Of a stretch of DNA of 64,000 bases, positions 5,817 to 30,407 are shown one piece after another. The position numbers were made by a program, and so were the translations under genes. The stretch comes from Candidatus Dormiibacterota bacterium (GTDB lineage Bacteria > Chloroflexota > Dormibacteria > Aeolococcales > Aeolococcaceae). The stretch is from positions 1,293,972 to 1,357,971 of the forward strand of contig CAVZPR010000002.1 of NCBI GenBank assembly GCA_963777285.1. Direction: 5' to 3'. The notes under the pieces were generated by a model. The model searched no databases and had not been told where the DNA came from. It saw nothing but the letters and a program-made list of their open reading frames with translations. The number at the start of each line of letters is the position of its first letter. Within the stretch, counting starts at the first letter, position 1.

Positions 5817-5859
5817 AGCCGACGGGGAGATTCGAACTCCCGGCCAGCGGTTTACGAAA
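5817..5859. repeat. attL-type copy of the tRNA-Thr 3' half
   Basis: AGCCGACGGGGAGATTCGAACTCCCGGCCAGCGGTTTACGAAA is identical to 30336-30378. The sequence diverges at 5816 and 5860, so this is not a complete tRNA. Confidence 0.85.
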
Positions 5860-5964
5860 GCGTGTCCGTGGTGCGTTTGCGGGTTTGAGAGGGGACCGCT
5901 GAATACATCGATGGTTGGATTGAGGCGTTACATCCCCGCCCGTCGGCCATACTGGTCCCTCATG

Positions 5965-5984
5965 GTGGGTACGTCCGTGGGTAC
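5965..5984 (+). promoter_or_regulatory. two GTGGGTAC direct repeats (candidate integrase arm-type sites, left end)
   Basis: GTGGGTAC at 5965-5972 and 5977-5984. The same octamer recurs three times at 30235-30275, next to the integrase start. Confidence 0.4.
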
Positions 5985-6339
5985 GACCGAGAAACCAGGC
6001 CCCAACGCGCTGCCGCGCGACTCGCGTCTATCCTGCCGATCTCGCTGCGGGCTGTCGCTGGTGCGCCCATAAACCCGCCGGACGTTCGTCTCGACATCAT
6101 CGATGCCGTCGGAGGTTATTGACTTAAACTGAATGTTCCAGTTCCTCCCCGGTCTCCTGACGGCGAGACTCCCGTGACTTCGACAAGACCGGGCCGCGAC
6201 TGCCGACAAAGAGTCGCGGAGCCGCTCCTCATTAAGGCTGGAGGCAGGTCTGAGCGACGTCTGTCACTCGCCGCCACTCTCGGCGAGAGCCGCCGTACCC
6301 CGCCCGCGTGGTGAACTGACGAACTTGGAGGTGTCTGAG

Positions 6340-6939
6340 GTGGCCGGCGTCACTGTACTTGCGCTCGTTCAAAGTTCTGGGACCTTTGACCCGTCACTTC
6401 TGATCTCCGCGATATCGGCGGCCGCAGCAGCGGCAGCCGCGGTCTTCGCTTATAGGAGTGCGCGCTCGTCGGCGAGAAGTACCCGCCTAGCGGAGAAGCA
6501 GGAGGAGCGTCGGCGACCAAAGATTGTCCCCTATTTGGGAGACGCGTATATTCGTCGTCTGCCCAACAGCCGGATCATTGCCACCCTACTCTCGCTAAGT
6601 AATCCTAGCGACACTGACAACAGCATAGCTAGCATCGAGCTTCAGGTGGTATATCGACTTGAGACAGGAATCGTGATGACCCTCCGGCTTCCTCACAATG
6701 CTGCGTTAGGTGGCTCGTTGGCGCTCACGAGTATCAATCCTTTCGTTCCCCCAGTCAGGATTGCAGCGCACGACACCGCGGCGGGCTGGGGGCTGTTCGA
6801 ACTCTCTCTTGCCCGCGTCGAGGACGCCGAGATCGATGAGTACGATGTCCGATTCACCGATGCACACGGCTTGTGGATCGAACAACCACTGGGGCTCTTA
6901 AGAGAAGTTGCCGATGAAGCGACGCTATCACACGATTAG
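6340..6939 (+). CDS. hypothetical membrane-anchored protein
   Basis: ORF 6325-6939. GGAGG at 6327-6331 favours the GTG at 6340. One N-terminal hydrophobic helix (LLISAISAAAAAAAAVFAY), then a beta-rich domain. No family recognised. Confidence 0.5.
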   Translation: MAGVTVLALVQSSGTFDPSLLISAISAAAAAAAAVFAYRSARSSARSTRLAEKQEERRRPKIVPYLGDAYIRRLPNSRIIATLLSLSNPSDTDNSIASIELQVVYRLETGIVMTLRLPHNAALGGSLALTSINPFVPPVRIAAHDTAAGWGLFELSLARVEDAEIDEYDVRFTDAHGLWIEQPLGLLREVADEATLSHD

Positions 6940-7522
6940 GTTTGCTTCGGCTCGCGAAGCCAGACCGGTCGAGGTGGTAGGCGACGCAGCTATTGCGGCG
7001 GGACCAATTGCCGAGGGCCGAGCCGTACCCCTTCTGATCTTGGATACTAGCGATCGGCCGGACCTCGAGGAACTTATCCGTATCCACCAAGAGGTGAACC
7101 CCGGAGATGTGCAAACGCAATGGGCACAGCTCCGAGGCAAAGCTGGGACCGTGTGCCTTCTCGTGGAATTCGAGCGGCCACTCGAACTCAGTGTGCTCTT
7201 GGAGTTCACCATTGAGGCCCAGGGAGGTCTCGTAGACCTGATTCTACGGTCCCGAGGCTTCTACCTTCAAGGGGGCCGCAAGGGTGATCGCCTTATCACG
7301 ACGCGACGTGCTCCCCGCATTCTGGTGGAGGTGCCCAAGAGCGACTTCGGCCCTATCTGGGAGCAACTTCTCATGAAGAGCGTAACAGCGACATTTCGAC
7401 AACGAGGTTTGAAGCGCGCGGCTGCTCGCCAAGCAGCGCGCGGTTTCATCACTGAATGGCGCCGGGTTGGCAATCTCAGGATGCCCATGCAGAGTGGGAG
7501 CGGCCTGCATCGTGGCGCTTGA
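6908..7522 (+). CDS. hypothetical protein
   Basis: 204-aa intact ORF overlapping the previous gene by 32 nt (operon-like). No recognisable motif. Confidence 0.45.
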   Translation: MPMKRRYHTIRFASAREARPVEVVGDAAIAAGPIAEGRAVPLLILDTSDRPDLEELIRIHQEVNPGDVQTQWAQLRGKAGTVCLLVEFERPLELSVLLEFTIEAQGGLVDLILRSRGFYLQGGRKGDRLITTRRAPRILVEVPKSDFGPIWEQLLMKSVTATFRQRGLKRAAARQAARGFITEWRRVGNLRMPMQSGSGLHRGA

Positions 7523-7729
7523 TGTCGCTCAGCCAGCACAGTGTCGAGTCGATCGTGCCTTCGACGGCGTAGGTGGATTGTGGTTTTGCCGCGCCATTCG
7601 AAATGGGATAGGCTGACTGCATGAGAATCGCCGAATCCACCCAAAGGGGCGGCGCGTGATACCTGGGACGGGCATTGTTTGCCACGACGCCACTCAGGAC
7701 TTCGGTACTAATGAAGGACTCAAGATCGC

Positions 7730-28276: not shown

Positions 28277-28365
28277 CGCCCAGCTCAACTGAGCAGATGC
28301 ACATCGCTCGCGTGAGGCTTTGATAGCGGCCACAGCCGCTGCCACATCTGGATTGGGGATCGCTG

Positions 28366-28728
28366 TCACCGCGCGCGCCCCGTCCTCGATAGCGCGGAGT
28401 GCTCGGAGCAAGGCGGTAGGGGCGGATCGACGCGAGAGGGGGCTCCGTATGGAAGGCTTCGATCGAGCATGAATTGCTCGAGCACGGGCCGCGCGATCCG
28501 GATCGTCCGCGGTCCCAAGCGTACAACGGGCAGCTCGTTCCGCCACACCATTTCCCACGTTTGGCGCCGGCCAATGCGGAGGGCTCGAGCCGCCTCCGTG
28601 ACGGTCATTAGTAGATGAGGCTGTGGCGCCTCGCGCGGAACCTCCACTTCAGGCACAGGCGTCATCGCAGGCGCGGTCTCAAGGTCGAACGGGAAGGCGG
28701 GTTGCTTCAGCGGGGTCGTTTGTTGCAT
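28366..28728 (-). CDS. excisionase / MerR-type HTH DNA-binding protein
   Basis: LLMTVTEAARALRIGRRQTWEMVWRNELPVVRLGPRTIRIARPVLEQFM. Start is ambiguous (28728, 28665 or 28608). Lies upstream of the integrase. Confidence 0.6.
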   Translation of the reverse strand: MQQTTPLKQPAFPFDLETAPAMTPVPEVEVPREAPQPHLLMTVTEAARALRIGRRQTWEMVWRNELPVVRLGPRTIRIARPVLEQFMLDRSLPYGAPSRVDPPLPPCSEHSALSRTGRAR

Positions 28729-29060
28729 AGGGTCATCCTGGATCATTCGTGTGCGCAAACTGTGCGCAATACTGTGCGCAATTTCGGGTGGCCCAATTCG
28801 CGCCGTGACGGTGGATCGATCGACTTCTTCATGGGGTAATCTTGAACCCTCCAAGTACACAGGTAGTTCACAGTCGCGTACACATTTTGGGTCACAGTTT
28901 TCGTGGCAGAGCTGACCACAACGGCGTTGCGTTCCTTCGGACGTTCGTGACAACAACCCCATCATGAACCGTCCTAAGGCACATTTTCATATCAGTTTCC
29001 ATAACATTCTTGGCCGTCCAGCGATCGCGGGACGGGTCCGAAGTCGGCGGCCACTCCTTA

Positions 29061-30234
29061 TTAATCCGCCGAGGTTGGGTCAGATAGCATCACGGCCATC
29101 CGGTCCACCGCTGTGCGCCGGAGGTTGTCGAGAACCGCCGTGTATACATTGGCGGTCGTAGATCTGCGAGTGCCCGAGAAGCGCGCTGACGGTCTTGAGA
29201 TCCGCGCCGGCCGCGAGCCAGAGAGTGGCGGCTCCGTGACGGAGATCATGAAACCGCCGCGGCCGCATACCGGCGCGCTGCATCGTCTTGCGGAACATGT
29301 GCGCAACGTTCGTGCCCTTCAGTGGCTCGCCGTGCACGGTAGTGAACACAAGGTCACCAAAGGACATGTCCCATGACGGACCAGCAGCGAGTTCGCCACG
29401 CGCGTTGTCGCTTCCGATACGCAGCAAGGACGGCACGGAGAGGTCGGACATCGGCACGGCGCGCGCGGACTTCCGCGTCTTCGTGGTTAAAAGGTGTGTC
29501 TCGCCACCGACGCGGGTCATGCTCTGCATGACGAGGAGCTCGCGGCGGTCGAGGTCGACCCGGTCCCAGGTGAGCGCGAGCAGCTCGCCCAGGCGCATCC
29601 CGGTCCAGATCGCCGTCGCGATGATCGCCTGGAGGGGATTGCCCTGGAAGGCGTCGAGAATCGCGCTCGCCTCTTCGGGCCGCATCGGCTCGATCGGCTT
29701 GGGTTGGAACCGCCGGGGTGCGGCGAGAGCTGCGGCGTTCTGCGCTACGAGACCCTGCCGGAGAGCGTCGTTGAGCGCGGTGCGCAGCACTGCCCGAGCG
29801 TGGTTCGCGGTTTGGGGCGACCGGCCCGCATTCATCATGCCGGCCGTCAGCCGGTCGACGTGCACCGGCTTGAGCTGCGTCAGCCTGAGATGGCCGATCG
29901 CTGGGAGCATATGGGTGTCGACCAGGCCGCGGTAACGAGCCGCCGTCGACGGCTTGAGGTCCGGCTCGGTCTGCTCAAACCACGAGGCCAGGTAGCCGCC
30001 GACCGTCAGCGTGCCGCGAGGTGGGAGCATGCCCCGGCCCTTGGCGGCCATGGCGTCGGCGAGCCGGTCCTCGCACTCCGCTCGGGTGTGCCCGTAGACC
30101 GAGAACCAGCGGCGCCCAGAGGGGGCAGCGGGGTCGACGACGCTGAAGCGCCCCTCGTAGAGAGCCGGCTTCTTGGCGGTCGCCGCCGTTCGCTGACGTA
30201 TGCGCCCGCGGCTTGGCCGCGATTTCGCTGGCAC
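29061..30234 (-). pseudogene. int: tyrosine recombinase (phage-type integrase) with a frame break before the catalytic Tyr
   Basis: 384-aa ORF from GTG 30234 with RFHDLRHGAATLWL...LLGHSQI, then out-of-family sequence. The adjacent frame (track ORF 29061-29306) reads STTANVYTAVLDNLRR...SAD*, which is the expected Tyr motif. The break is near 29155-29165. Confidence 0.85.
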
Positions 30235-30275
30235 GTGGGTATCGTAGCAAACTAACGTGGGTACAGCGTGGGTAC
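30235..30275 (+). promoter_or_regulatory. three GTGGGTA(C/T) direct repeats (candidate integrase arm-type sites, right end)
   Basis: GTGGGTAT at 30235-30242 and GTGGGTAC at 30257-30264 and 30268-30275. Same orientation as the pair at 5965-5984. Confidence 0.4.
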
Positions 30276-30332
30276 AGGGCGTCAGCGAGGTTTCTGGCTC
30301 TTCGCGAAAACCCTTATTTTACAAGGGCTTTA

Positions 30333-30407
30333 TGGAGCCGACGGGGAGATTCGAACTCCCGGCCAGCGGTTTACGAAACCGCTGCTCTACCACTGAGCTA
30401 CGTCGGC
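30333..30407 (-). tRNA. tRNA-Thr (anticodon CGU)
   Basis: The reverse complement folds as a cloverleaf. Acceptor GCCGACG/CGTCGGC, D stem GCTC/GAGC, anticodon stem GCGGT/ACCGC with loop TTCGTAA, T stem GGGAG/CTCCC with loop TTCGAAT, and an encoded CCA. Confidence 0.95.
30336..30378. repeat. attR-type repeat (within tRNA-Thr)
   Basis: Identical to 5817-5859. Covers the tRNA from the anticodon loop to the discriminator base. Confidence 0.85.

Follow-up and report, generated by a model that had tools for sequence, protein, structure and literature searches.

What is the DNA that lies between two copies of a tRNA fragment in the genome of an uncultured soil bacterium, Candidatus Dormibacterota? 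The stretch analysed here, which we call the window, comprises 64,000 nucleotides of contig CAVZPR010000002.1, and carries a complete tRNA-Thr gene at one site and an orphan piece of the same gene at another. We conclude that these mark the ends of a site-specific integrative island of 24,519 bp (counting the interior and a single repeat unit), which very probably entered the 3' half of tRNA-Thr(CGU). An earlier note on this DNA had reported a 43-nt direct repeat with its right copy in a complete tRNA-Thr and its left copy orphaned, and repeat search, ARAGORN and Rfam showed this to be correct in every detail. The repeat (AGCCGACGGGGAGATTCGAACTCCCGGCCAGCGGTTTACGAAA) is exact, with copies at 5817-5859 and 30336-30378, no third copy in the window and no equivalent in 0/100 shuffles; in the whole 2.85-Mb, two-contig assembly, the 43-mer occurs only at these two sites. 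Around both copies, identity reaches 45/46 nt. ARAGORN placed the tRNA-Thr(CGT) on the minus strand at 30333-30407, and the Rfam tRNA model matched 30336-30407 with 74 bits. Read in the direction of the tRNA, the repeat begins with the last base of the 5' strand of the anticodon stem, continues through the anticodon loop and ends at the discriminator, and the encoded CCA (30333-30335) lies outside it. The orphan 43-mer shows zero drift from the copy within the tRNA. The features at the two ends of the island are as follows.

5817-5859, no strand assigned: attL core, an orphan copy of the 3' part of tRNA-Thr(CGU), presumably displaced by integration (exact repeat).
5965-5984, plus strand: tandem pair of the octamer GTGGGTAC (5965 and 5977), candidate left arm-type sites (rarity, conserved position).
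28366-28965, minus strand: excisionase-like HTH_17 protein, with conserved residues 110-174 (HTH_17 3.7e-7; phrog_66 2e-5).
29021-30261, minus strand: tyrosine integrase (ORF 29080-30234; Phage_integrase 8e-24, SAM-like N-terminal domains).
30257-30275, plus strand: tandem pair of GTGGGTAC (30257 and 30268), candidate right arm-type sites (rarity, conserved position).
30333-30407, minus strand: tRNA-Thr(CGU), the 3' part of which (30336-30378) is the attR core (ARAGORN, Rfam).

A tyrosine integrase and an excisionase (Xis)-like helix-turn-helix (HTH) protein had been noticed just inside the tRNA-proximal end, and Pfam and PHROG searches agreed with both assignments. In the integrase, the motifs RLGE, HDLRH and LLGHS are in frame, and the tyrosine segment, TTANVYTAV, is one base out of frame (at 29160). 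Compared with its intact orthologue in genome G171 (62.5% identity), the gene contains three frame changes, i.e., a compensating pair at 29450 and 29392, and the one at 29160. The phrog_66 family is annotated as "excisionase and transcriptional regulator", and the HTH_17 protein is 67-69% identical in all related islands; its position and conservation make it a likely candidate for an excision directionality factor. The octamer GTGGGTAC occurs four times in the 64 kb, against an expectation of 0.76, and all four copies fall in the two arms, on the plus strand. In 3/3 islands, i.e., this one and two relatives described below, the left pair stands at positions 149 and 161 from attL, and the second pair lies about 110-120 nt from the right end. 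From this placement and its conservation, the pairs are likely to be arm-type binding sites for the integrase.

These observations would fit the following mechanism. A lambda-type tyrosine integrase would recombine an element-borne attP, carrying a 43-nt copy of the tRNA from anticodon loop to discriminator, with the tRNA gene. Integration would restore the complete tRNA next to the integrase (attR), and the original 3' half of the tRNA would remain, orphaned, at the opposite end (attL). Situated about 60-120 nt in from the two ends, the GTGGGTAC pairs probably act as arm-type sites, and the HTH_17 protein probably drives the directionality of excision. The island belongs to a modular family with a conserved integrase-excisionase (int-xis) end, a conserved 350-nt left end and exchangeable cargo, which in this copy consists of stacked candidate anti-phage modules and one IS256 element.

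The island is also set apart by its composition. Its GC content is 61.05%, versus a genome mean of 69.5% (z = -3.6), and it ranks first of 228 segments of the same length, with both the lowest GC and the largest tetranucleotide distance, in agreement with the view that the interior is more AT-rich than its surroundings. Related genomes without the island were found, as the empty-site comparison proposed in the earlier note required. In G002, from the same genus, the distance between an identical tRNA-Thr and the end of a gene matching 1028-2595 of the window (84% nucleotide identity) is 1.14 kb, and in G001, also from the same genus, 2.7 kb separates the conserved left gene from tRNA-Thr and the island is absent. 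The corresponding gap in the window is 27.7 kb. The DNA immediately to the left of attL (5673-5816) is homologous to DNA directly following tRNA-Thr in G007, a member of another genus, which is the arrangement expected before integration. The relatives are only 77-84% identical in DNA sequence, and the junction is not resolvable base for base.

One correction to the extent of the foreign DNA is needed, because the non-syntenic region exceeds the repeat-bounded unit. GC is low from about 4140, synteny is lost at about 2952, and neither G001 nor G002 has the segment 2952-5816 at this locus. To the left of attL, this segment contains a SAM methyltransferase gene of native GC content (2980-4140, minus strand), followed by low-GC DNA (4140-5650) with an ASCH-like gene (4213-4713, phrog_3136) and an HTH plus NucS_C gene (4766-5464). 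Paralogues of this ASCH-like gene occur in the island, in frame-broken form (21098-21610), and intact at C2:88228-88674. We considered whether 4140-5816 might be an older tandem island, and found no second degenerate att copy (up to 3 mismatches) in the window. Given the absence of a third att copy, 2952-5816 is treated here as separate, older variable DNA.

Relatives of the integrase were sought among 300 genomes of the same class and, separately, in an alignment-based scan of all GTDB species. The closest among the 300 genomes were 59-61% identical, and for three of the top five (G171, G173 and G201) a tRNA-Thr(CGT) gene stands at a distance of about 100 nt; other close integrases adjoin tRNA-Ser or tRNA-Leu. 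In the GTDB-wide scan, the hosts of related integrases were Candidatus Dormibacterota metagenome-assembled genomes (MAGs), and four loci adjoin tRNA-Thr(CGT); integrases beside that tRNA include those at loci L169, L172 and L173. The best named relatives in reference collections were phage and Streptomyces-plasmid integrases, with 31-36% identity.

The far end of the island is visible in two of the related loci, L171 (equivalent to G171:C8; CAWKDT010000008.1) and L173 (CAVOMR010000003.1). Their islands, of 9.3 and 10.6 kb, respectively, are each bounded by the identical 43-mer. The two match each other along 3.9 kb at their int-xis ends (93%) and along the leftmost 350 nt (88%), with nothing shared in between. 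With the present island they have only the int-xis module and the ends in common, i.e., the 43-nt att repeat in tRNA-Thr(CGT), a 60%-identical integrase, a 68%-identical Xis-like HTH protein, and GTGGGTAC pairs at equal offsets. They differ from it in size and have no cargo in common with it; in L171, Kelch- and BNR-repeat proteins and unknown proteins take the place of the defence genes.

These two islands bear directly on the suggestion that the repeat and the island are products of assembly, i.e., of a chimeric join or of a tRNA fragment duplicated by the assembler. The assembly does contain consensus errors, and the island does differ in composition from its flanks, both of which would suit an artefact. 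However, two MAGs of other species, assembled independently, have the same repeat, arm motifs and int-xis layout, the DNA outside attL matches that beside the tRNA in another genus, and the geometry is exactly that predicted for recombination by an integrase. Because independent islands with an equal 43-mer and related int-xis genes exist in two other MAGs, we set aside an artefact, which the earlier note had named as a possible refutation, and consider it extremely improbable.

The interior of the site-specific island contains the following features.

6325-7522, plus strand: two overlapping ORFs of unknown function (6325-6939 and 6908-7522), with no Pfam or PHROG match and no homologue in any fetched related locus.
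7730-8886, plus strand: ABC/AAA_15-AAA_21 ATPase, a PADLOC candidate of PDC-M25A/HEC-01A type (PDC-M25A).
8883-9605, plus strand: DUF4276/HEC-01B-like partner of the ATPase (weak matches: DUF4276 8.5e-4, HEC-01B 4.7e-7).
10556-11947, minus strand: IS256-family element of 1392 bp (transposase 10614-11840; Transposase_mut 1.8e-131).
11919-13355, minus strand: NucS_C/PDC-S11-like nuclease gene (PDC-S11 4.5e-24).
13454-15875, plus strand: hsdM, type I restriction-modification (R-M) methylase, NPPF motif present (N6_Mtase 1.5e-50).
15835-17177, plus strand: hsdS, with about 8-9 frame changes (low confidence) and an in-frame TAA at 16467.
17177-20417, plus strand: hsdR, Walker A and DEAH motifs intact, 82% amino acid identity to L087 (HSDR_N, SWI2_SNF2, T1R_D3).
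20416-21111, plus strand: YgjP-like metallopeptidase, open frame (Pfam 1.7e-51).
21098-21610, minus strand: ASCH-like gene with one frame change (tblastn pieces in two frames; BLASTP 5e-8).
21660-22912, minus strand: ORF of unknown function (21660-22058) and DUF7669 protein (22106-22912; DUF7669 5e-14).
23400-25494, minus strand: ubiquitin-like (Ubl) conjugation operon, with Multi_ubiq-like (25234-25494), E2-like (24842-25231) and JAB-like::ThiF/E1 (about 23400-24840) genes.
25592-26833, plus strand: HTH_XRE plus M78 peptidase (RmrA-like), intact (RmrA 1e-27, Peptidase_M78 2e-18).
26796-27449, plus strand: overlapping 217-residue partner of the RmrA-like protein, one open frame (weak match, PDC-S70 5e-7).
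27872-28558, minus strand: ORF of unknown function between the cargo and xis, with no matches.

An interior dominated by defence-type and mobile genes had been proposed from the sequence, and Pfam and PADLOC bore this out. The ATPase is split over two frames near 8510, its parts matching PDC-M25A positions 1-245 (2e-39) and 251-358 (5e-21) of 380. The hsdM, hsdS and hsdR genes, which together with ygjP make up a complete operon, are recognisable and colinear with the intact operons at L060 and L087, although none of the three is a single open frame; in a frameshift-aware alignment, hsdM has 68-72% amino acid identity to its intact counterparts at L060, L087 and L061. In the YgjP-like protein the HExxH motif reads PExxH, whereas two aligned homologues keep HELVH. 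Within the Ubl operon, compared here with the bacterial Bil (E1-E2-JAB) systems, the best scores were for ThiF (1e-21) and PADLOC E1-E2 (1e-8), and the JAB::ThiF/E1 gene is frame-broken; Multi_ubiq (0.001) and Prok-E2_E (0.007) were both under the curated cut-offs, and no JAB model matched. The RmrA-like gene is colinear with a homologue in G154 and has no stops, and the profile of RmrA, from the Rosmer (RmrT/RmrA) system, covers positions 10-358 of 400; its partner matches no RmrT model. As judged from these gene contents, the island carries several clustered candidate anti-phage systems, as expected of a defence island. The IS256 element has a second, 100% identical copy at C1:691565-692956, and no clear target-site duplication was found for the copy in the island. 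It overlaps the last 29 nt (11919-11947) of the nuclease ORF, so that this gene is either abutted or cut at its 3' end.

Because its int-xis genes are of phage type, with phage and Streptomyces-plasmid integrases as their named relatives, and because about 5 kb of its ORFs have no assignable function, the island might instead be a degraded prophage, a phage satellite, or an integrative conjugative or mobilisable element, e.g., of a kind similar to the actinomycete integrative and conjugative elements (AICEs), whose structural or transfer genes have been lost. The earlier note had seen no phage structural, replication or conjugation genes, and searches with Pfam, PHROG and genome-wide profiles gave the same answer. 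There was no PHROG structural match in the island and no Phage_capsid match in the whole genome, no terminase, portal or tail domain was found by Pfam among the island ORFs scanned, and the matches to the FtsK_SpoIIIE profile lie outside the island. Rep, relaxase and type IV secretion system (T4SS) domains were likewise absent from the scanned ORFs, where frame-broken genes could hide weak matches. In addition, the sister islands are just 9-10 kb long, and the one that was scanned (L171) also has no such genes. We therefore regard a prophage or conjugative remnant as improbable, if less so than an assembly artefact. The note had preferred a defence island or a decayed element to a prophage: the profile scans uphold defence over prophage, whereas decay was not established. 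Lacking its own genes for transfer or replication, the island would depend on other vehicles to spread horizontally.

How does this defence-carrying island compare with known systems? Islands that target tRNA genes by means of lambda-type tyrosine integrases form a class reportedly catalogued by K. P. Williams in NAR in 2002. The present island resembles them in that its repeat equals the 3' portion of a tRNA, beginning in the anticodon loop, its integrase lies by the restored tRNA and is accompanied by an Xis-like HTH protein, its composition is deviant, it is absent from sister genomes, and close relatives of its integrase have switched to tRNA-Ser and tRNA-Leu. It differs in its uncultured host phylum, and in that its integrase is at most 36% identical to reference phage and plasmid integrases. 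Defence islands, or integrative defence hotspots, which are said to have been described by Makarova et al. in 2011 and Millman et al. in 2022, similarly pack unrelated anti-phage modules together with mobile genes; here, however, several of the modules match just "candidate" PADLOC families (PDC-M25, PDC-S11, PDC-S70 and HEC-01), and the frames of most are broken as assembled. Integration at a tRNA 3' end, an int-xis module and a high-GC, Gram-positive-like host are also features of AICEs (e.g., pSAM2 and SLP1); unlike them, this island has neither an FtsK-like Tra nor a Rep, Spd or Nudix module among the ORFs scanned. In short, it is a standard tRNA-targeting, tyrosine-integrase island with defence cargo, genuine but ordinary. 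What is modestly new is the host phylum, an element family defined by its 43-nt core together with candidate arm sites, and the modular exchange of cargo among three islands.

Is the island still functional? The answer depends on the origin of its many frame breaks. Frame changes were placed using a frameshift-aware dynamic programme against the intact homologues at L060, L061 and L087. There were 11-13 in hsdM, 7 in hsdR, about 8-9 in hsdS, 3 in the integrase, and 1 each in the ATPase and the ASCH-like gene. Of about 30 breaks in the island overall, about 23 were well placed, lying within 13551-15698 and 17436-20240 and at 29160, 29392 and 29450, and these were all of 1-2 nt, with none larger. 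Their density was about 2-4.5 per kb (about 3-4 in hsdMSR and 2.5 in the integrase), compared with about 0.06-0.1 per kb in a core background, for which 9 of 90 core orthologues (115 kb) showed frame changes relative to G002.

Several results point to errors in the consensus rather than to decay. The leuS gene (59138-61568), which is single-copy and essential, is also split over two frames, matching its model at 1-378 and then from 394 of 843. This shows that the assembly contains consensus indel errors, and that frame breaks within it are not readable as pseudogenes without the reads. Across HsdM and HsdR, where about 1,870 codons were aligned, there was not a single nonsense codon, when several would be expected alongside 18-20 indels, and the catalytic motifs of both proteins are intact. 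Insertions and deletions among the placed shifts were about equally frequent (13 versus 10), with no deletion bias, no larger deletions accompanied the shifts, and there has been no drift in the orphan 43-mer. A Nanopore-only catalogue, assembled with Flye plus Medaka, is the source of the related MAGs, and Nanopore-associated errors in lower-coverage MAGs have been reported by its authors (PMC12313526). An exact-protein look-up of the YgjP-like protein gave no match, nor did a search for a 47-nt hsdM pattern in metagenome contigs; the closest metagenome relative of hsdM was 89% identical in amino acids and about 73% in nucleotides. None of these searches gave a near-identical copy with which to compare the frameshifts. 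On balance we favour, with some reserve, the interpretation that most of the frame breaks, including those in the integrase, are long-read consensus indel errors rather than decay, in which case the island may still be functional.

A number of points weigh against an intact element. As assembled, the integrase does not have its catalytic tyrosine in frame, and the roles proposed for the arm sites and the Xis-like protein are drawn from position and conservation only. The density of frame changes is very uneven, which fits gene-specific decay better than uniform error. There are zero in the IS256 element (1.39 kb) or the RmrA gene (1.24 kb), although the rate seen in the R-M genes predicts about 9 for the 2.6 kb that these two comprise, and the density in the cargo is 30-50 times that of the core background. 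Three lesions are not indels at all, i.e., the IS256 element that overlaps the nuclease gene at its 3' end, the TAA in hsdS, and the His-to-Pro substitution that gives PExxH in the YgjP-like protein. These findings would suit an island that is the same in origin but truly decayed and immobilised, a fixed remnant with genuine pseudogenes for the integrase and the type I R-M, ATPase, ASCH-like and E1 proteins, kept "alive" only by IS256 and an addictive RmrA-type pair. The shifts are not enriched at homopolymers (21% versus 13% background, not significant), unlike residual long-read errors, although this does not by itself discriminate error from decay. Successive shifts alternate in sign in 16/20 pairs (13551-20240 and 29160-29450; P = 0.006), and this alternation, together with the lack of homopolymer enrichment, fits neither decay nor typical long-read error well. 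Set against the absence of nonsense codons and the broken leuS, true decay is in our view a substantial possibility, but one that we lean against.

If the breaks are indeed consensus errors, the island would be intact and possibly still excisable, and the largest known member of an undescribed, tRNA-Thr(CGU)-specific family in Candidatus Dormibacterota; we regard this stronger statement as finely balanced, tipping slightly towards doubt. Were it true, it would provide a first handle on mobile DNA in this phylum, and potentially a tool for site-specific integration. In full-text literature, "Dormibacterota" and "integrase" co-occurred only in passing mention. The locus is a textbook case of a tRNA gene serving as a landing site for mobile DNA, in this instance within a phylum for which metagenomes are the sole source. 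It also provides candidate arm sites, a defined att core, three islands between which cargo is exchanged in modules, and a stack of candidate defence systems.

Some observations concern the DNA around the island. The segment adjoining attL (5673-5816) contains two 18-nt TGGG(A/G)CACATCAGCCGAA repeats of the CATCAGCCGAA type, and the first 20 or so codons of a small HTH ORF (MRQISVAEQRYQAVLAVIA), of which only these approximately 20 codons are conserved with G007; the stretch is also partly conserved in the flank of the G171 island. An active insertion sequence was considered here and rejected, as the segment is single-copy in this genome and conservation is limited to those HTH codons. It probably represents an old remnant within the ancestral flank of the tRNA. 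In G007, a different tyrosine integrase and low-GC DNA (L027 10379-11563) lie 5' of this tRNA-Thr. Further to the left, a small Flp-type pilin gene (…MVEYGLILVLIAVVVVIVVGF…) lies at 2830-2958. Its core of about 120 nt matches many loci in every related genome, which accounts for the multi-copy matches that the left part of the window gives in relatives.

To the right of the island, ARAGORN also called a 93-nt tRNA-His(GTG) at 35178-35270, where the Rfam tRNA model was below threshold. As a second integration target it is without Rfam support, and the call is probably false. In G002, a homologue of 33448-34323 is directly followed by a homologue of 58384-59502, so that about 24 kb of the window (34400-58300), including a type IV pilus locus, constitutes a second variable region. 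The PilB (T2SSE) match within it, at 37780-38780, contains one TAG and two TGA codons. Other large stretches of low GC (0.62-0.65), at C1:1.30-1.375 Mb and C2:12-60 kb, are likely to be further islands. The two contigs of the assembly are nearly equal in length (1,422,614 and 1,423,087 bp), and four Phage_integrase matches with identical scores (C1:1417979-1418494, C2:1587-2102, C2:1414613-1415128 and C2:1422257-1422772) lie at or near contig ends, which suggests that a repeated element broke the assembly.

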